Under the pieces are notes generated by a model, which was not told the DNA's origin, ran no database searches, and worked only from the letters and a program-made list of their open reading frames with translations. From IMG/VR virus record IMGVR_UViG_2778261224_000007: 64,000 nt of DNA; one strand, given 5' to 3'. The stretch comes from a virus (Duplodnaviria > Heunggongvirae > Uroviricota > Caudoviricetes). A program made the position numbers and the translations under genes. Below are positions 4,133 through 64,000 of this stretch, piece by piece. Numbering within the stretch: position 1 is the stretch's first letter; each line of letters starts with the position of its first letter.

Positions 4133-4972
4133 TCACGCATCGCTATCCAACAGCAAATCATCTGCGCGGGTGCGATCAAACGTAGGCGTTGCTTTCACAA
4201 TAGTGCCGCCCGGCGTTGCAGTGATCGGGGCGTTAATCGACGTAACTTCAGTAAGCGAAGTTGTATCCGAAGTTTCAAACCAGCAGAATGCTTTTTCGGT
4301 ATCAGAAATCTCATTCAAAGTGATCATGTCGGCCTGTTCATTTACAACAACCGACAAATAGAGCGTAAGCCCATCAAACACTATATGCAGTGGCAGTAGA
4401 GGCTTTACGAACTGATTAAACTTTCTGAGAATTTCTTCTGTAATTGCGGACTGATCTATCGTTCCAGTAATACCCATTGTCCGGGCCAAGTCGTTTATGG
4501 GAATACTGATCATTCCTCTGGAAGTCAGAAACATCTCGCCGAATGTGCCGCCGGTGGTTTCCAGTGTGCTTTCTGGAATCAGGACCGTGCCATAGGGATG
4601 ACGTTCAAAGTCCACCGGAGCATATATGGGATCCCATAAAACCGATATACCGTTAAATTCGCGATAAATTGTCTGGTTTATAGGGCGTTCAGTACCCTTA
4701 AAATGGATCTCATCAAACCGCTGTTGTAACAACATCGGAACGGAAGATGAATTCGACGTTCTGATAGTAAAAAACTGGCCAAGTTCATTTGTCCTAGTCT
4801 CCAGATCCTCCTTGCTCATGGAGAAAATAGACTTCCGGTTGGTAATTCGCTCCAACCATGGGTCAACAAAGGTGTCCATCATTGACTGAACCAAATCAGC
4901 CAATGATTTATAAAGTAATGACTTTTGCTTAGCTGATGTAAGCCGGTTATTAAACCAGGAACGCTGCATCAC
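4133..4972 (-). CDS. baseplate/tail protein (P1 gene 16-like by position)
   Basis: 279-aa ORF, translationally coupled to the upstream gene. Confidence 0.5.
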   Translation of the reverse strand: MMQRSWFNNRLTSAKQKSLLYKSLADLVQSMMDTFVDPWLERITNRKSIFSMSKEDLETRTNELGQFFTIRTSNSSSVPMLLQQRFDEIHFKGTERPINQTIYREFNGISVLWDPIYAPVDFERHPYGTVLIPESTLETTGGTFGEMFLTSRGMISIPINDLARTMGITGTIDQSAITEEILRKFNQFVKPLLPLHIVFDGLTLYLSVVVNEQADMITLNEISDTEKAFCWFETSDTTSLTEVTSINAPITATPGGTIVKATPTFDRTRADDLLLDSDA

Positions 4973-6402
4973 TCCTCCTCATACGAAATATTAAAGGTGG
5001 AGTTTTCTGTATCCAGATAAACGAAATCGTAAAAGCCGTTGGACTCATTCCACTCGACAAATTCCAGATAAAAGTCGCGGAAATAACCCAGCGTTTCGAT
5101 AAATGCCCAAACGTCTTTTTTCTTGATTAGGATGTACTTGCCGACACGGTTCGGATCAAAGAAAGTTGAGTCACGCCCAAATTTTGTTTCCAGTGCCGAC
5201 TTCAGCTCATCAGTCACGTTCTCAATGGTCAGGCTTGCCGATATCCGCCCAGTGATGGTGATCTTAAAGGGTAGTTTTCTGACCTCTTTATACGAGAATT
5301 TCTTGTTCAACTCATTCGGCACCTTCTTAAAGGCGGCTAGGATCATTTCTTCAAGCTCTGACTGGCTTTTGTTTGGATGCCATCCTGAAATAAATATCTT
5401 ATTGATATTCCGAACATTATAAGCACCATCTAATTTCTCTTGCTGGCCTTCGCCCCATGCCTTTACCCAGGACAGTCCCGGGATGTTACGCACCAGAAAA
5501 TACGTATAGTCCCCGCCCCATACGACCTGATCATCATAGGCAAGGTAATATTGTGCACGGTTACGTGTGATCTCCGTTGTTTCAGCATCGGTACCTGCGG
5601 TTATAGGTGTCGTTGTCTTAACTGAAATCAAATTAGCTAAATTAGCCGCAGAATCAACAGGAGTCAGGTTTTGGCCAGCAACCAGGGTTATATCGCCGTT
5701 GGTGCACCATACCTTAAGCGTAATTGTCGAGCCTTCTGGCGGTATTTGCCCAATTAGCCCATCGCCGAATCGGACACCCAACTGTTCGGATGGTTTATAA
5801 AACTCAACGTAGACCTGGCTTTTACTACCAGCTAACCGGAACATTGTGCTGGAAGACCACTGCGTGGTCTTACCATCGGTCGTCACGAATACTTCCAGCT
5901 TATAGCAGACAGCAGTGAGAGCCTTTGATAACACGACTTCCAGAAATTCTTTGGCAGCCGTAACGGTATATGTCACCTCCTGGATTTCCAACTGTGCCAC
6001 TTCTACCGTACCGGTGCCGTCAACCAACCTGCATACATCCATAGTCATGTAAGGGTACTGGTCGTCAGATATTAAAGGCATGTTTTTGGGAATTACCGCT
6101 GGGGCATCTTCACTTGTGGCGGTGATCTCAATCATCCCCGATGACGGTGTTGGCTTGGTACCAACGTAACTATTCGTTTCTGCCGCTGCCAGGATAGAGG
6201 AACGCCGCGTCGCGGTCGATATAAAGCCTTCAGCCAGCGCCGCATCGGCATACTGAAAGCACCTGTAGACAATCTGGGTAATAAACAATGTCAGCATCGA
6301 GACAAATTGAGAGCCGACAAACTTCGACCAGAATGAATCTTTCTCGACAAGCTCTTCAAACTCTGCACGAATACTGTCTTTAGTCGGTGTTGTTTTACTC
6401 AT
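4969..6402 (-). CDS. baseplate protein (P1 BplA-like by position)
   Basis: 477-aa ORF in the tail operon, overlapping stop/start with neighbours. Confidence 0.5.
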   Translation of the reverse strand: MSKTTPTKDSIRAEFEELVEKDSFWSKFVGSQFVSMLTLFITQIVYRCFQYADAALAEGFISTATRRSSILAAAETNSYVGTKPTPSSGMIEITATSEDAPAVIPKNMPLISDDQYPYMTMDVCRLVDGTGTVEVAQLEIQEVTYTVTAAKEFLEVVLSKALTAVCYKLEVFVTTDGKTTQWSSSTMFRLAGSKSQVYVEFYKPSEQLGVRFGDGLIGQIPPEGSTITLKVWCTNGDITLVAGQNLTPVDSAANLANLISVKTTTPITAGTDAETTEITRNRAQYYLAYDDQVVWGGDYTYFLVRNIPGLSWVKAWGEGQQEKLDGAYNVRNINKIFISGWHPNKSQSELEEMILAAFKKVPNELNKKFSYKEVRKLPFKITITGRISASLTIENVTDELKSALETKFGRDSTFFDPNRVGKYILIKKKDVWAFIETLGYFRDFYLEFVEWNESNGFYDFVYLDTENSTFNISYEEE

Positions 6403-14004: not shown

Positions 14005-14021
14005 AATGCTCTAATAAATTT
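14005..14021 (+). promoter_or_regulatory. C1 repressor operator-like site (AATGCTCTAATAAATTT) upstream of the c4/icd/ant operon
   Basis: 16/17 match to recalled P1 C1 operator consensus ATTGCTCTAATAAATTT. Confidence 0.7.
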
Positions 14022-14199
14022 GTATTTTTAAGTCGCGAATGCTATCTTTTCGCATCATATTGACCTTTTAATCGTTCAGGCTTATAGTTCCGCCGTCGTA
14101 GCAAATTCTGCGACCGGGTTTGACAGCCTGAATGTTAGTGCGGACAACCGCTGATTTCCGATATTGCGGTATTTTTGTGTCCGTAAACCGCGTTACGCC

Positions 14200-14300
14200 C
14201 GAATTATGGTGGGGCGTGATGGGGAGGCTTCGGCCTGCTGGTTTCACTAACGCCAGTCTGTCAACCCTGTCACGTCCTGCCACCTGTTTGACAGCGGGTA
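14200..14300 (+). ncRNA. candidate c4-like antisense RNA / target region upstream of icd (boundaries approximate)
   Basis: Non-coding, GC-rich, UUCG-loop hairpin 14225-14236, internally complementary 7-mers CTGTCAA (14258-14264) and TTGACAG (14288-14294); position matches P1 c4. Confidence 0.35.
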
Positions 14301-14334
14301 GCAGGTTGTTAAACCTGTTAGTGAGGCCGTAACT

Positions 14335-14556
14335 ATGGTTAATGCCAATCCTTGCACACGCCAAGAATTCATCTGGCGTTTCTATTCCTGTAAAAAACAC
14401 CACTATCACTTCGTTATCGCAGCAACTGAAGACGAAGCACGCTCTCAATTGCCTGATGGCCCCTGCATTTTTACTGCCCGTTTTTCTACTAACTCGCGCA
14501 ATTCACTTAGTTACTGGAACCTCCCCTTCTCTGCCGACGTTCAGGGGGTTTTATGA
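14335..14556 (+). CDS. icd: Icd-like small protein (interference with cell division)
   Basis: 73 aa, translationally coupled (ATGA) to the downstream antirepressor as in P1 immI. Confidence 0.55.
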   Translation: MVNANPCTRQEFIWRFYSCKKHHYHFVIAATEDEARSQLPDGPCIFTARFSTNSRNSLSYWNLPFSADVQGVL

Positions 14557-15938
14557 AAAAACCTCTCGTCACCCGTAATGAAATTGCCGAAGCGATCGCT
14601 TTGCATACAACCTGTATGCCGACACGGGAGATCCCCGGCGCAATTGCCAACTATTTCATGATAACCAGACGTTTTTATACCCGAACAGATAAGGCGGTGA
14701 TCAACAGGCTACTGATAGCCGAGATCAGGGATTATTTGATTGAACAAGGACGTCTACGTTACGCAACAGTGGCAGCAGAAATGAGAAAGGAGGCACATAG
14801 AATGACCAGTAATAATTTGAATGTTAAAAAACCAGCATCTGTTGCTTCAGCTACGCCATCACCAGCTGTGAATGTCATCCCCACCACCGGAGACACAATC
14901 GACAGCCTGACACTGTTAAAGATGGTCAATGAAGCGCGTAAGTTATGTGGGGAACCAGAGGTTCGGAACAACAAATTCATCGAAAAAATACTCGATGAGC
15001 TTGATGGTGAGCACTACACAAAAAGTGTAGTGGAAAAAATGAACAGAACATCAATGCTTGTCATAACCATGACCTACAAACAAGCCCTGCGAGTTGCCGC
15101 ACGCGAATCAAAAGCGGTCCGCCGTTCGCTACATACCATGATTCAGTCATTGGAACCTATAAATGTAGAAAATCAGCCTGATGAAATTCCCGTTCTGGAA
15201 TGGCAGGGAGTACGCGTCGTGACAACCGAGACTCTTGCTAGAGGGTATGGCACTACACCTATTCGTATTCAGCAGAACTACAATCGCAATGAAGAACGAT
15301 TTGTAGAGGGTAAACACTTCTTTAAAATCAAAGGAGATGAGATAAAAAGTTTGCGACTATCTTTTAGCGAGTTGCAAATTTCCCCCAAGACCAGATCCTT
15401 AATACTCTGGACCGAACGCGGAGCGGCACGCATGTCTAAGATCGTAGACACAGAGCAAGCGTGGGCATTCTTTGAAAAACTGGAAGACAGCTACTTCCGG
15501 CAAAAAGAACAGCAACCGGTCACAATCCCCCAAACATTACCAGAAGCTCTACGCCTGGCTGCCGAGTTGGCAGAGCAGAAAATGCAGTTGGAACAACAGC
15601 TGGTGGCCGCAGCCCCTAAAGTCGAGTTTGCCGACCGGGTATCAGTGGCCAATGGAATCCTGATCGGGAACTTTGCAAAGGTCGTTGGACTTAAGCAAAA
15701 CGCCCTTTTCTCATGGTTGCGCCAGAACGGCATTCTCATGGCTTTTGGTGCGCGCAAAAACGTACCGCGCCAGCAGTACATTAACGCCGGGTATTTCACG
15801 GTGAAAGAAGTGGTGCTGGATGATGAAAATGGCTATCAGATACGGCTGACGCCCCAATTAACGGGTAAAGGCCAACAGTGGTTAACTCGCAAGCTACTTG
15901 ATGCTGGTTTGTTAAAACCAGTGGCGTCCTTGTCTTAA
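14553..15938 (+). CDS. ant: antirepressor Ant with C-terminal KilA-C type domain
   Basis: 461 aa; C-terminal region homologous to the KilA C-terminal domain (LPEALRLAAELAEQK...GKGQQWL). Confidence 0.75.
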   Translation: MKKPLVTRNEIAEAIALHTTCMPTREIPGAIANYFMITRRFYTRTDKAVINRLLIAEIRDYLIEQGRLRYATVAAEMRKEAHRMTSNNLNVKKPASVASATPSPAVNVIPTTGDTIDSLTLLKMVNEARKLCGEPEVRNNKFIEKILDELDGEHYTKSVVEKMNRTSMLVITMTYKQALRVAARESKAVRRSLHTMIQSLEPINVENQPDEIPVLEWQGVRVVTTETLARGYGTTPIRIQQNYNRNEERFVEGKHFFKIKGDEIKSLRLSFSELQISPKTRSLILWTERGAARMSKIVDTEQAWAFFEKLEDSYFRQKEQQPVTIPQTLPEALRLAAELAEQKMQLEQQLVAAAPKVEFADRVSVANGILIGNFAKVVGLKQNALFSWLRQNGILMAFGARKNVPRQQYINAGYFTVKEVVLDDENGYQIRLTPQLTGKGQQWLTRKLLDAGLLKPVASLS

Positions 15939-16577: not shown

Positions 16578-17378
16578 ATGCAACAAACATTCAATGCGGA
16601 TATGAATATATCAAACCTTCATCAAAATGTCGATCCTTCAACCACTCTGCCCGTTATTTGTGGTGTTGAAATTACGACCGACCGCGCTGGCCGTTACAAC
16701 CTTAATGCTCTACACAGAGCGAGCGGACTCGGTGCCCATAAAGCGCCAGCTCAATGGCTAAGAACGCTGTCAGCCAAACAGCTCATCGAAGAGCTTGAAA
16801 AAGAAACTATGCAGAAGTGCATAGTTTCGTTCGAAGGCCGTGGCGGCGGCACTTTTGCCCATGAATTGCTCGCTGTGGAGTACGCAGGCTGGATTTCTCC
16901 CGCATTTCGGCTGAAGGTAAACCAGACATTTATCGACTATCGAGCCGGAAGATTACAACCTGCTATTCCGCAGAGTCTCCCTGAAGCTCTCCGTTTGGCT
17001 GCCGACCTGGCAGAGCAAAAGCAACGGCTGGAGCAAAAAATGCTTATGGATGCACCTAAAGTCGAATTCGCCGAACGCGTTGCTACCGCCAGCGGGGTTC
17101 TAATCGGCAACTATGCCAAAGTGCTCGGCCTGGGCCAAAACTATCTCTTCACCTGGTTGCGTGATAACGGAATTCTGATCGCAACCGGTGAACGCAGGAA
17201 CGTCCCCAAACAAGAATACATATCCCGTGGGTACTTCACCCTCAAAGAAACCGTGATCGACACAAGCAACGGAAGCAGGATTTCTTTCACGACTCGTATA
17301 ACCGGCAAAGGTCAGCAGTGGCTAATGAAGCGATTGCTTGATGCTGGTGTGCTGGTACCTGTCGCAGCTACGCGCTAA
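16578..17378 (+). CDS. kilA: KilA-like protein (KilA-N/KilA-C)
   Basis: 266 aa; C-terminal half closely related to the Ant C-terminus; followed by repL-like gene as in P1. Confidence 0.7.
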   Translation: MQQTFNADMNISNLHQNVDPSTTLPVICGVEITTDRAGRYNLNALHRASGLGAHKAPAQWLRTLSAKQLIEELEKETMQKCIVSFEGRGGGTFAHELLAVEYAGWISPAFRLKVNQTFIDYRAGRLQPAIPQSLPEALRLAADLAEQKQRLEQKMLMDAPKVEFAERVATASGVLIGNYAKVLGLGQNYLFTWLRDNGILIATGERRNVPKQEYISRGYFTLKETVIDTSNGSRISFTTRITGKGQQWLMKRLLDAGVLVPVAATR

Positions 17379-60065: not shown

Positions 60066-61259
60066 GTGACCTGGGACGATCACAAGAAGAATTTTGCTCG
60101 CCTGGCGCGAGATGGTGGTTACACCATCGCACAATATGCCGCCGAGTTTAATCTCAACCCAAACACCGCACGTCGTTATCTCCGTGCATTCAAAGAAGAC
60201 ACCAGAACAGCGGACAGCCGTAAGCCAAATAAGCCTGTCAGGAAACCACTAAAAAGCATGATCATTGATCACGCTAATGATCAACGTGCAGGTGATCACA
60301 TTGTGGCTGAAGTGGCTGAAAAACAAAGAGTTAATGCTGTTGTCAGTGCCGCAGTCGAGAACGCTAAGCGCCAAAATAAGCGCATAAATGATCGTTCTGA
60401 TGATCATGACGTGATCACCCGCGCCCACCGTACCTTACGTGATCGCCTGGAACGCGACACCCTGGATGATGATGGTGAACGCTTTGAATTCGAAGCTGGC
60501 GATTACCTGATAGATAACGTTGAAGCGCGGAAGGCCGCGCGCGCTATGTTGCGTCGGTCCGGGGCCGATGTTCTGGAAACCACTCTTCTGGAAAAGTCTC
60601 TTTCTCATCTCCTTATGCTGGAGAACGCCAGGGATACGTGCATTCGCCTGGTGCAGGAAATGCGCGATCAGCAAAAAGACGATGATGAAGGTACTCCGCC
60701 TGAATACCGTATCGCGAGCATGCTAAACAGCTGTTCCGCGCAGATAAGCAGCCTGATCAACACCATTTACAGCATCCGGAATAACTATCGAAAAGAAAGC
60801 CGGGAGGCGGAAAAGCACGCTTTATCTATGGGGCAAGCTGGCATTGTTAAGCTGGCATACGAACGAAAGCGTGAAAATAACTGGTCAGTGCTGGAAGCGG
60901 CTGAATTCATCGAGGCGCATGGAGGAAAAGTGCCGCCCCTGATGCTGGAGCAAATCAAAGCCGATCTGCGTGCTCCTAAGACCAATACCGATGATGAGGA
61001 AAATCAAACAGCATCTGGCGCTCCATCACTTGAAGATCTGGATAAAATCGCGCGAGAACGGGCCGCCAGCCGCCGCGCTGATGCCGCATTGTGGATTGAG
61101 CATCGTAGAGAAGAAATTGCCGATATCGTCGATACAGGTGGTTATGGTGATGTCGATGCGGAAGGCATATCAAACGAAGCATGGCTTGAACAGGATCTGG
61201 ACGAAGACGAGGAGGAAGACGAAGAAGTTACCCGCAAACTGTACGGGGATGATGATTAA
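60066..61259 (+). CDS. pacA: terminase small subunit PacA (contains pac site)
   Basis: 397 aa; N-terminus [28 protein letters not shown] recognised; acidic C-terminus; pac GATC clusters inside. Confidence 0.85.
60255..60420. promoter_or_regulatory. pac packaging site: two clusters of TGATCA/GATC hexamers
   Basis: 4 GATC at 60260-60297 and 3 GATC at 60390-60416, the arrangement recalled for the Dam-methylation-regulated P1 pac site. Confidence 0.8.
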
Positions 61260-62743
61260 TGGCCAGAAGTTGCGTAACGGATCCACGTTGGCGCGAGCTG
61301 GTGGCGCTATATCGTTATGACTGGATTGCGGCCGCTGATGTGTTGTTTGGGAAGACACCAACCTGGCAGCAGGATGAGATCATTGAGTCCACGCAGCAGG
61401 ACGGCAGTTGGACAAGTGTGACCTCCGGCCATGGTACTGGTAAATCGGATATGACGAGTATCATTGCAATACTCTTCATCATGTTTTTCCCCGGCGCTCG
61501 CGTCATTCTGGTCGCTAACAAAAGACAGCAAGTCCTTGATGGTATTTTCAAATACATAAAGAGCAATTGGGCTACTGCTGTTAGCAGATTCCCGTGGTTG
61601 TCGAAGTATTTCATTCTTACAGAAACGTCTTTTTTTGAGGTGACTGGCAAGGGTGTTTGGACAATATTGATAAAGTCCTGTCGCCCCGGAAATGAGGAGG
61701 CGTTGGCTGGTGAACACGCCGATCATCTCTTGTATATCATCGACGAAGCGTCGGGGGTGAGTGATAAAGCATTCAGTGTGATAACAGGTGCGCTGACCGG
61801 TAAGGATAACCGTATTCTGCTTCTTTCCCAGCCTACGCGACCTTCAGGCTATTTCTACGATTCACACCACAGACTAGCTATTCGCCCGGGAAATCCTGAT
61901 GGATTGTTTACTGCGATAATACTGAATAGTGAAGAATCTCCGCTTGTAGATGCAAAATTTATACGAGCAAAACTTGCGGAGTATGGCGGTCGTGATAACC
62001 CCATGTACATGATCAAAGTACGTGGTGAATTTCCCAAATCTCAAGATGGCTTTCTTCTTGGTCGTGATGAGGTTGAGCGGGCGACGCGGCGAAAGGTCAA
62101 GATTGCCAAAGGATGGGGCTGGGTTGCATGTGTTGACGTTGCTGGTGGCACAGGACGAGATAAGTCCGTTATTAATATCATGATGGTGTCCGGCCAGCGA
62201 AATAAACGCCGTGTAATCAACTATCGTATGCTGGAATACACAGACGTTACAGAAACGCAGTTAGCCGCCAAGATTTTCGCAGAATGTAACCCAGAACGGT
62301 TCCCGAACATAACCATAGCTATTGATGGCGATGGCTTGGGGAAATCGACGGCTGATCTAATGTACGAACGCTATGGCATTACCGTCCAGCGTATCCGCTG
62401 GGGTAAAAAGATGCACAGCCGTGAAGATAAAAGCCTTTATTTCGATATGCGCGCTTTCGCGAATATTCAGGCGGCAGAAGCTGTAAAATCAGGGCGTATG
62501 AGGCTTGATAAGGGGGCTGCGACTATAGAGGAAGCATCAAAGATACCGGTAGGGATAAATTCCGCAGGTCAATGGAAGGTGATGTCAAAGGAAGATATGA
62601 AGAAAAAACTCAACCTGCACTCACCGGACCATTGGGATACATATTGTTTCGCTATGTTGGCGAACTATGTTCCCCAAGATGAAGTGCTTAGCGTCGAAGA
62701 CGAAGCGCAGGTTGATGAAGCTCTGGCATGGCTTAACGAGTAA
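61259..62743 (+). CDS. pacB: terminase large subunit PacB
   Basis: 494 aa; Walker A-like GHGTGKS; coupled to pacA. Confidence 0.85.
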
Positions 62744-62746
62744 AAA

Positions 62747-62763
62747 CTTGCTCTAATAAATTG
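62747..62763 (+). promoter_or_regulatory. C1 operator-like site (CTTGCTCTAATAAATTG)
   Basis: 15/17 match; immediately after pacB stop, upstream of second icd/ant-like module. Confidence 0.65.
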
Positions 62764-62959
62764 TGTTTTTTGACTGCCGATGTTACATTGAACCTGACCT
62801 CTTGCGCCTTGAGGCATTTTCGGTTTATGCTTATCAGGCACCTCATTAAAACGGGTGCCGGGATTGAGACCCCGGATAATGTCAAAGGCGACACAGACGC
62901 CGAAAGCGTCTTTTTTTGTGTCATGCCATCGCACAGCCATACGTAGCGTTTAGCTCCGA

Positions 62960-63062
62960 AATCAATGGTAGTGCTGGCTGGGCTGCCGAAAGGCAGGCCG
63001 GTTCCCTTTGACGCCGGTAGTCTCAACCCAGTCAGTGCTACCGCCATTGAGATTGAGACCTC
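62960..63062 (+). ncRNA. candidate second c4-like antisense RNA / target region (boundaries approximate)
   Basis: GAAA-loop hairpin 62983-62996; complementary 7-mers GTCTCAA (63020-63026) and TTGAGAC (63053-63059), paralleling the first module with compensatory changes. Confidence 0.3.
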
Positions 63063-63102
63063 ACGCGGTAGCTCCTTAACTTAGTCAAAGGAGGCTGCCA
63101 TT

Positions 63103-63324
63103 ATGGCTACTGTCCCTACCCCAACTCATCCTGAATTCATCTGGCGCTTCTATTCCTGCCAGAAACGTCACTATCACTTCGTTATTGCACCGACAGAAGA
63201 TGAGGCCCGTTCTCAGCTTCCTGACGCTCCCTGCATTTTCTCTGCCCGCTTTTCCACTGATTCGCGCAACTCTCTCAGTTACTGGTGCCTCCCTGTTAAC
63301 GCTTCTGCTCAGGAGGGACTATGA
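63103..63324 (+). CDS. second Icd-like small protein
   Basis: 73 aa; shares EFIWRFYSC, HYHFVIA, TEDEARSQLPD and SRNSLSYW blocks with the ORF at 14335-14556. Confidence 0.6.
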   Translation: MATVPTPTHPEFIWRFYSCQKRHYHFVIAPTEDEARSQLPDAPCIFSARFSTDSRNSLSYWCLPVNASAQEGL

Positions 63325-64000
63325 GAACGTCATTAGTCACCCGTGAAGAAATGATTGAGGCAATTGAACAGCACACATCCTGTATCAGTACCAGGGATAT
63401 ACCGGGCGTTATTGCCAACTACTTCATGATCACCAAACAACTTTACCGGAGAAAGGACAAGAACGCTGTTCACCGCATTCTGTTGTCTGATATCCGCGAA
63501 TACCTGCTCGAACAGGGGCATCTGAATTACGCAACCGTCGCAGCCGAAACACGCAAGGAGGCACACAGAATGAAAGCAACTAACGTTAAATCAGAAAAAA
63601 CTCATGCACCTTCAGTTCAGGAATCGGAGCTGGTGGTTGTTCAGAATCAGTCTGATGAAATTCCCGTTCTGGAATGGCTGGGAGTGCGTGTAGTGACAAC
63701 TAAGATCCTTGCTAAGGGGTATGGGACAGATGCGGATAACATCAAGAAGAACTTTTCCCGTAATGCTGAACGTTTTTGTGAAGGCAAGCATTTCTATAAA
63801 GTTATTGGAGATGATTTGAACAATTTGCGGGTGACTTTAAGTAACTCACAAAATCCTATCTCTCCTAAAGCCCGCTCACTCATCCTCTGGACGGAACGCG
63901 GCGCAGCCCGCCACGCTAAAATGATCGAAACCGATCAGGCATGGGCATTCTTTGAAAAACTGGAAGACAGCTACTTCCGACAAAAAGAACAGCAACCGAT
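63321..64000 (+). CDS. second antirepressor (Ant-like), 3' end beyond the window
   Basis: ATGA overlap with upstream gene as in the first module; N-terminal and central regions homologous to Ant at 14553-15938 but lacking a segment of roughly 90 aa. Confidence 0.65.
   Translation, partial: MRTSLVTREEMIEAIEQHTSCISTRDIPGVIANYFMITKQLYRRKDKNAVHRILLSDIREYLLEQGHLNYATVAAETRKEAHRMKATNVKSEKTHAPSVQESELVVVQNQSDEIPVLEWLGVRVVTTKILAKGYGTDADNIKKNFSRNAERFCEGKHFYKVIGDDLNNLRVTLSNSQNPISPKARSLILWTERGAARHAKMIETDQAWAFFEKLEDSYFRQKEQQP

Follow-up and report, generated by a model that had tools for sequence, protein, structure and literature searches.

In phage P1, synthesis of the Ant proteins, which antagonise the C1 repressor, is blocked by the c4 RNA (PMC8546580). 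P1 has a single immI operon, located between sim and kilA, and its c1 gene lies on the opposite strand after pacB, with 24 bp between the pacB and c1 stop codons. Expression of ant is said, in the papers of Citron, Biere, Heinrich and Schuster, to depend on icd translation. The present analysis concerns the window, a stretch of 64,000 nucleotides (nt) from IMG/VR record IMGVR_UViG_2778261224_000007, which is a P1-like (Punavirus) phage-plasmid. The stretch which follows its pacB gene (62744-64000, hereafter cassette 2) is probably a second functional immI-type cassette, with an action like that of P1 immI and a different RNA specificity, in an element that also carries a first, P1-type immI cassette (cassette 1).

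A related system has been described in Salmonella, in the isrK-orf45-anrP locus of Gifsy-1 (Hershko-Shalev et al. 2016, PMC4825925). There, translation of orf45-anrP rises about 100-fold when short IsrK acts in trans, IsrK residues G28 and G31 pair with C162 and C159 of the downstream segment, and spontaneous prophage induction requires the isrK promoter. IsrK was called a structural homolog of P4 SeqA in the same study. As for insertions related to cassette 2, Venturini et al. 2019 (PMC6906374) reported two short open reading frames (ORFs) and ant as an insertion separating pacB from c1 in pTZ20_1P and likewise in RCS47, and icd-ant homologs at a further location in pSvP1. A second c4/icd region has been noted in the D6-like plasmid pYU39_89 (Silva et al. 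2019, PMC6799933). The accessible literature, the RCS47 and D6 genome papers aside, makes no mention of the c4-like RNA, isrK-type leader, operator or orthogonal a/b code of this insertion.

The megablast identity of the window with P1 (99 %) stops at 62743, the pacB stop codon, and that with P7 at 62750, just beyond it. An earlier note on this DNA, made from the sequence alone, had stated that in P1 c1 follows pacB and that there is only one immI; the 24-bp pacB-c1 gap and the single operon confirm this. The module is absent at this position from P7 and from the published P1 genome, whose having it would have refuted the note. The same note had asked whether ant-2, the ant gene of cassette 2, is broken past the window end. 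Plasmid NZ_CP016549.1 is 100 % identical to window 62744-64000 and has an intact ant-2 of 371 amino acids (aa), followed by 32 bp, the convergent c1 gene, and then coi and cre. The rarity that the note had implied did not survive: the same module occupies the same site in RCS47 (99.7 % identity), JL22 (93 %) and vB_EcoM-673R5 (89 %), and at least 258 plasmids in PLSDB carry the pacB end and the module over at least 80 % of the query. A contiguous, empty pacB-c1 junction of the P1 type was present in 314 of the 703 plasmids having pacB/c1 ends, and the pacB-c1 insertion occupies about half of sequenced P1-like plasmids. A match over at least 80 % of the query occurs in 289 of 5426 complete E. 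coli genomes, and 592 of the 611 matching places are on plasmids. Cassette 2 is therefore common though little studied, and already deposited, annotated and recorded as an insertion; it belongs to the known immI (c4/icd/ant) kind and has a leader of the isrK type.

The features of cassette 2 are as follows.

62747-62763, plus strand: C1 operator-like site CTTGCTCTAATAAATTG; the pacB stop codon lies 4 nt before it
62761-62789, plus strand: candidate C1-controlled promoter (-35 TTGTGT at 62761-62766, 17-nt spacer, -10 TACATT at 62784-62789)
62802-62831, plus strand: candidate leader promoter (-35 TTGCGC at 62802-62807, 18-nt spacer, -10 TATGCT at 62826-62831)
62838-62918, plus strand: isrK-family leader RNA with the upstream c4 targets
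62864-62870, plus strand: a1 target TTGAGAC, in the loop of leader hairpin 2
62881-62888, plus strand: b1 target GTCAAAGG
62895-62911, plus strand: intrinsic terminator in the leader, followed by a run of seven T (terminator scan)
62961-63048, plus strand: c4-2 antisense RNA, full length for Rfam RF01695
within c4-2: b' element CCTTTGAC, in the loop of hairpin 2
within c4-2: a' element GTCTCAA, in the single-stranded segment after hairpin 2
63053-63059, plus strand: a2 target TTGAGAC
63084-63091, plus strand: b2 target GTCAAAGG, overlapping the icd-2 Shine-Dalgarno sequence AAGGAGG at 63088-63094
63103-63324, plus strand: icd-2, 73 aa, an Icd paralog behind the AAGGAGG ribosome site
63321-64000, plus strand: ant-2, first 680 nt; its start overlaps the icd-2 stop codon (ATGA) and the ORF leaves the window

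The antisense RNA and its targets carry most of the argument. The Rfam C4 family (RF01695) matches 62961-63048 with 75.4 bits, against a gathering score of 45, and the predicted fold (-46.5 kcal/mol, z = -5.26) is supported by compensatory changes among homologs in 11 of the 23 consensus pairs of the C4 helices. c4-2 thus has the C4 fold found in immI, with a long outer stem and two inner hairpins. Targets were sought as exact complements, in the flanks, of the c4 hairpin-2 loop (b') and of the next single-stranded segment (a'). For c4-2 this search returned exact complements of 7-8 nt at a1, b1, a2 and b2 of cassette 2. Applied to cassette 1, it returned TTGACAG and GTTAGTG both upstream and downstream, that is, the curated a1, b1, a2 and b2 of P1. 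The b2 target of cassette 2 lies over the icd Shine-Dalgarno sequence, the arrangement curated for P1 a2/b2. Cassette 2 therefore has, as immI does, a'/b' elements complementary to a1/b1 and to a2/b2, with b2 over the icd ribosome site.

The c4/target sets of the two cassettes are mutually non-complementary. No complement of at least 7 nt to either c4 was found in the other cassette. Since RNAduplex of a whole c4 against a flank ignores intramolecular structure and was uninformative, pairing was judged element by element; the duplex energies were -8.7 to -13.4 kcal/mol for cognate and -1.5 to -6.8 kcal/mol for non-cognate elements. For a2 and b2 of cassette 2, they were -10.0 and -12.7 kcal/mol with c4-2 against -4.9 and -2.8 kcal/mol with c4-1. 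As a calibration, the heteroimmune pair P1 and P7 also differs at both a and b (TTGACAG / GTTAGTG versus TTAGCAG / GATTGTG).

Three further observations concern this region. Ahead of the a2 target stands a partial tandem copy of it (TTGAGA TTGAGAC, window 63047-63059, plus strand). A local hairpin, GGUAGCUCCUU...AAGGAGGCUGCC (window 63067-63099, plus strand), is predicted to bury the icd-2 Shine-Dalgarno sequence as well, which would add a second layer of translational silencing. RefSeq also has a 39-aa ORF labelled "ash family protein" (window 62965-63084, plus strand), annotated as wholly within the c4-2 gene; it matches Pfam Phage_ASH (E = 2.5e-6) and is the positional counterpart of orf45 in the isrK locus of Gifsy-1. 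The ash family may consist largely of conceptual translations of c4/CI-like RNA genes, or such a stretch may hold both an RNA and a short ORF.

Upstream of these elements lies a predicted C1 operator. Of the 17 positions of the C1 operator consensus, the site CTTGCTCTAATAAATTG agrees at 15, the mismatches falling only at the two end positions, and it has the same strand and operon-relative position as P1 Oc4/Op51. Across the window, 12 C1 operator-like sites with at most three mismatches were counted, against 0.33 expected from shuffles. The operator is kept at -335/-356 from the icd ATG in the scorable loci of the pacB site (about 44 of some 62), mostly with two mismatches. Its 3' end in cassette 2 is overlapped by the -35 hexamer of the candidate C1-controlled promoter, the geometry annotated for P1 Oc4/P2c4, in which the -35 hexamer begins at operator position 15. 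The candidate leader promoter has its predicted start at about 62838, which is position 1 of the Rfam isrK match; the promoter stretch is identical in a related locus (L006) whose c4 region has diverged.

The leader differs in family from that of P1. Rfam isrK (RF01394) matches 62838-62916 over the whole model (1-77 of 77) with 60.2 bits, above the gathering score of 50, and the leader, closed by an intrinsic terminator, is of the isrK type. In its predicted fold (z = -2.25), a1 occupies an 8-nt loop of the second hairpin. The Rfam family c4-a1b1 (RF03163) matches only cassette 1 (14082-14134) and isrK only cassette 2, so that the c4-a1b1-type leader of immI is replaced here by one of the isrK family; a blastn comparison of the cassette-2 leader with cassette 1 gave no similarity.

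The predicted genes downstream complete the immI arrangement, with an icd of 73 aa, a coupled ant1 and an in-frame ant2 start. Icd-2 is 77 % identical to the Icd of cassette 1, and icd is 73 aa long in 62 of 63 related loci with an assignable start codon (16 more gave no ATG). PGAP labels icd-2 "host cell division inhibitor Icd-like protein" and ant-2 "phage antirepressor Ant". The full ant-2 ORF is 1116 nt in NZ_CP016549.1 and is also intact in RCS47; in locus L003 it lies at 4578-5693 and is identical over the overlap with the window. An internal in-frame ATG at 63570, with the Shine-Dalgarno sequence AAGGAGG at 63555-63561, is the counterpart of ant2; this start is at codon 84, and the 249-nt offset is the same as that between P1 ant1 and ant2. 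The full-length protein from L003 scores 107.7 bits for Pfam ANT (PF03374), against a cut-off of 25.3, and 66 bits for ORF6N, and Ant-2 is on this domain evidence a phage antirepressor with an ANT/KilAC domain. Its identity to the Ant of cassette 1 is 72 % over the C-terminal 299 residues, the N-terminal 83 being clearly related, and its identity to P1 Ant1 is 74 % over aligned columns.

The earlier note had read a C1 operator-like site at 62747-62763, a structured non-coding region, a 73-aa Icd paralog and a coupled Ant paralog into this stretch, and the 15/17 consensus match, the isrK and C4 matches over their gathering scores, the Icd identity at 63103-63324, and the ATGA overlap at 63321 together with the Ant identity bear out each of these. 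Its description of a complete second copy of immI stands in part: all the parts are there, but the leader is of isrK type and is no copy of the P1 leader.

KilA (window 16578-17378, plus strand; KilA-N plus ANT/KilAC) is a third KilAC-domain protein of the element, and its C-terminal domain is clearly related to those of both Ants. In L003, the 32-bp gap between the ant-2 and c1 stop codons (5694-5725, just past the window end) holds a hairpin, ATGCCCGG...CCGGGCAT. As ant-2 and c1 converge, read-through from ant-2 would be antisense to c1.

The first cassette was resolved as follows.

14005-15938, plus strand: first, P1-type immI cassette, 98.5 % identical to P1 immI
14005-14021, plus strand: Oc4
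14120-14126 and 14134-14140, plus strand: a1 and b1
14202-14287, plus strand: c4-1, an Rfam C4 match
14288-14294 and 14317-14324, plus strand: a2 and b2
14335-14556, plus strand: icd
14553-15938, plus strand: ant

Its targets agree with the curated P1 features. Its Ant has 461 aa, against 347 aa for P1 Ant1, with an extra ORF6N between the P1-type middle segment and KilAC. P1 Ant1 is made up of an N-terminal part of 83 aa, the middle segment and KilAC, and Ant-1 of the window of the same parts plus ORF6N; in Ant-2 the N-terminal 83 aa are followed by ORF6N and KilAC, ORF6N replacing the middle segment. ORF6N and ANT/KilAC are thus common to both Ants of the window in Pfam, and the Ant proteins of this group are mosaics in their domain make-up. 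A recent duplication of the resident immI was considered as the origin of cassette 2 and ruled out, since blastn identity between the cassettes (71-77 %) is limited to icd/ant and the leaders belong to different Rfam families. Judged by these comparisons, cassette 2 is an old, diverged and mosaic relative of immI. The stretch from its leader to c4 is 90-94 % identical to that of a D6 cassette and about 69 % identical to stretches beside ant genes in more than 100 Stx/lambdoid phages.

The covariation of c4 and targets was followed in a survey of 79 loci obtained by an IMG/VR scan with Icd-2 (numbered with L below), to which named phages were added; an Icd-2 scan of genome contigs gave three near-identical loci. 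The c4 pattern was relaxed for a third c4 scaffold (28 loci), and target matches were of at least 7 nt with at most one G-U pair. P1-type b2 sites were seen in a stricter c4 search, the G-U-tolerant filter having hidden them (three G-U pairs extended the run). Wherever c4 was located, in IMG/VR loci and named phages alike, a1, b1, a2 and b2 all match the a'/b' elements of the same cassette, and at least 11 a/b combinations occur across the survey. Five types occupy the pacB site in the IMG/VR survey: TTGGCCT / GTCTAAGG (26 loci), TTGAGAC / GCAAAAGG (14 loci), TTGGAAC / GCAAAAGG (10 loci), TTGAGAC / GTCAAAGG (8 loci and the window) and TTGGAAC / GTCAAAGG (4 loci). Each of the three c4 scaffolds is nearly invariant outside a' and b'. 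Such a distribution of variation is what specificity determinants should show. In the 44 scorable pacB-site loci the operator is there, icd has 73 aa and the ATGA overlap is kept, and most encode an Ant of 340-372 aa; some 16 more loci of this site, in which no ATG start was found, were left unscored.

Cassettes are also stacked. Contigs with two or three cassettes always mix types (L008/L078/L083, L020/L074, L054/L080 and L063/L081); three cassettes, all of different a/b types, lie on one 42-kb IMG/VR contig (L008, L078 and L083), and plasmids NZ_CP077509.1, NZ_CP013030.1 and NZ_CP077546.1 also have three c4/icd/ant cassettes. The idea that a cassette type is bound to one site was ruled out by isrK-type cassettes before kilA and by a P1-type cassette in L083. 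The former (L035 and L042) are 91 % identical to window 62744-63732 and stand at the canonical immI position directly upstream of kilA, so that leader types are exchangeable between sites; the latter adjoins a homolog of window 38990-41073.

Taken on several independent sequence criteria, cassette 2 is almost certainly functional, and the way in which it may work can be outlined from the P1 model. For promoter use, c4 processing, the interaction of Ant-2 with C1 and the immunity phenotypes we infer the following. Transcription would begin downstream of the C1 operator, from the C1-gated promoter, and the leader promoter would provide a further start at isrK position 1. The leader terminator would stop most transcripts, giving a short isrK-like RNA that displays a1 and b1, and read-through transcripts would carry c4-2, icd-2 and ant-2. 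Mature c4-2 would then pair through a'/b' with a2/b2 on the read-through mRNA and cover the icd-2 ribosome binding site. Because ant-2 is coupled to icd-2 by the ATGA overlap, this block would silence the antirepressor and keep Ant-2 off in the lysogen. Ant-2, if made in long and short forms like P1 Ant1/Ant2, would be expected to inactivate C1, and the C1 encoded beside cassette 2 is 99 % identical to that of P1.

Since c4-2 and c4-1 cannot pair with each other's targets, the two switches would be independent, and cassette 2 would plausibly add a second immunity specificity, orthogonal to the first, that acts on the same C1. The idea in the earlier note of two independent switches, or of an anti-immunity function against related prophages, is thus plausible and in keeping with the data. 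With orthogonal c4/target sets, a prophage carrying both cassettes should silence incoming ant genes of both types, which would widen superinfection immunity, and an infecting phage with both should escape a lysogen that makes one c4 type only.

Several points weigh against reading cassette 2 as a second immI. A strict sigma-70 consensus scan of cassette 2 found no promoter, and because of this both of its promoters are proposed by analogy with the P1 annotation only. Even the curated P1 record gives a1/b1 no more than a "putative" role, and in Gifsy-1 the c4-like stretch was taken as orf45 and not as an antisense repressor (PMC4825925). The middle of Ant-2 is ORF6N and not the P1 Ant1 segment, so that its protein target could differ. 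In a few related loci ant is truncated, encoding 80 aa (L014) or 254 aa (L048). Finally, the accessible literature, within the scope given above, holds no experiment on cassette 2.

Of the other readings, the best placed is a positive switch of the Gifsy-1 type, in which the short isrK-like RNA, built up in certain conditions, would pair with the c4-like segment of read-through transcripts or with free c4-2 and turn on translation of icd-2/ant-2. It would provide a signal-dependent induction route independent of cassette 1, and it overlaps with the reading as an immI-type cassette. The full-length isrK match with its terminator, the display of a1 in a leader hairpin loop, and the additional burial of the icd-2 ribosome site in a local hairpin all suit such a switch, as does the precedent of short IsrK, which activates in trans and pairs with a downstream segment (PMC4825925). 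The Gifsy-1 locus description, on the other hand, does not include the icd and the P1-type a2/b2 over the Shine-Dalgarno sequence that cassette 2 has, and the upstream C1 operator suggests that C1, not an environmental signal, gates transcription. By analogy with Gifsy-1 this switch is possible, but we think it rather unlikely.

It is more doubtful still that Ant-2 leaves its own C1 alone and targets repressors encoded elsewhere, for instance by D6-like plasmids or lambdoid prophages, which would make the cassette a weapon that induces or overrides unrelated co-resident prophages. This proposal draws on the leader/c4 type, which is that of D6 (90-94 %) and recurs beside ant in more than 100 Stx/lambdoid phages (about 69 %), and on the presence of ORF6N in Ant-2 instead of the P1 Ant1 middle segment. 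However, ORF6N is found in the cassette-1 Ant of the window too, and the N-terminal 83 residues, the internal start and KilAC of Ant-2 are P1-Ant-like (74 % to P1 Ant1). Moreover, the D6 Ant with the same leader is unrelated (23 %), and the leader type therefore does not predict the target. The position of cassette 2 beside c1, behind a C1 operator, also speaks for C1.

That cassette 2 is a functionless recombination remnant of P1-like elements is very improbable: P1 and P7 are fully viable without it and ant is truncated in a few relatives, but decay was rejected on the intact ORFs, the coupling and operator conserved in scorable pacB-site loci, the perfect three-way RNA/target covariation over many specificity types and the concentration of variation in the recognition elements.

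The orthogonal immI-type cassette proposed here may be one instance of a wider system. We would not yet count on it, but the survey raises the possibility of a combinatorial "immunity code" in the P1 supercluster, in which c4/target cassettes are interchangeable, a genome stacks one to three mutually orthogonal ones at several sites, and leaders serve as sponges. The a-elements of such a code would number at least 4-5 and its b-elements at least 8, in free reassortment. If true, stacking would reflect an arms race: each extra c4 would silence one more class of incoming antirepressor, and each extra ant would break the immunity of lysogens without the matching c4. The isrK-type leader would then soak up its own c4 as a sponge or anti-antisense RNA, which would also explain the a1/b1 sites of P1; the link to IsrK gives a testable function for these sites. 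An a/b code readable from sequence would also allow superinfection and induction relations to be predicted from genomes.

In E. coli and Salmonella, P1-like phage-plasmids often carry genes for resistance and virulence, and coexistence, exclusion and induction among them depend on their immunity systems. If cassette 2 works as an orthogonal immI, P1 itself poorly represents about half of its relatives in nature, in which immunity would require two or three keys.

Upstream of cassette 2, the 3' part of the window carries, according to the ORF list, doc, pdcA, pdcB and lpa, and then the two pac genes.

60066-61259: pacA
61259-62743: pacB

About 29 % of window 40000-62743 has no megablast match in P1 or P7. 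This part is matched in vB_EcoM-673R5, where HsdR and restriction subunit S are annotated, and is probably a non-P1 restriction-modification insert. Three tRNA genes were found with Rfam (36771-36843, 36849-36921 and 38356-38428, all on the plus strand). P1 itself encodes tRNA genes, and they are thus expected in a P1-like genome.

Cassette 2 can be set against five known systems. With P4 immunity (CI RNA, seqA/seqC) it would share a processed antisense RNA lying between complementary upstream and downstream targets on the same transcript. It differs in that, according to the description in PMC4825925, CI works by ending the transcription of replication genes prematurely and there is no icd/ant. 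The Gifsy-1 isrK-orf45-anrP locus of Salmonella (PMC4825925) is similar in that its terminated isrK-family leader precedes a processed c4-like RNA (STnc1160) and a translationally coupled antirepressor, and in the pairing of the leader with the downstream c4-like segment. Its description contains no Icd gene, its c4-like stretch was interpreted as orf45, which is translated and directly coupled to anrP, and its leader was shown to activate (PMC4825925).

The D6 module between ref and pmgF also consists of an isrK-like RNA, c4, icd and ant, and its leader, c4 and icd start are 90-94 % identical to those of cassette 2, with the same a element, TTGAGAC. D6 likewise has two cassettes of different specificity, TTGAGAC / GCAAAAGG and TTGACAG / ACTTACG, the second next to repL. 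The module stands at another genomic site, has GCAAAAGG where cassette 2 has GTCAAAGG as its b element, and encodes an Ant that is unrelated to Ant-2 (23 % identity). The pacB-c1 insertion of RCS47 (NC_042128) and pTZ20_1P is the same element; in RCS47 it is 99.7 % identical, at the same site, and followed by c1, coi and imcB. The annotation and the accessible text do not mention the c4-like RNA, the isrK-like leader or the operator. Whereas in the window the element is paired with a first cassette of P1 type, that of RCS47 is of P7 type.

The immI operons of P1 and P7 remain the closest in organisation. Cassette 2 stands at pacB-c1 and not, like immI of P1, at sim-kilA; its specificity is TTGAGAC / GTCAAAGG in place of TTGACAG / GTTAGTG (P1) or TTAGCAG / GATTGTG (P7); its leader is of the isrK family with an intrinsic terminator, unlike the Rfam c4-a1b1 leader of P1; and Ant-2 has ORF6N in place of the P1 Ant1 middle segment. 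The order of parts from the upstream C1 operator onwards is the same, with a C4-family RNA, a1/b1 and a2/b2 targets, and b2 over the icd Shine-Dalgarno sequence. The 73-aa Icd, the ATGA-coupled Ant and the internal start 249 nt into ant are shared as well, and the proteins are 72-77 % identical.

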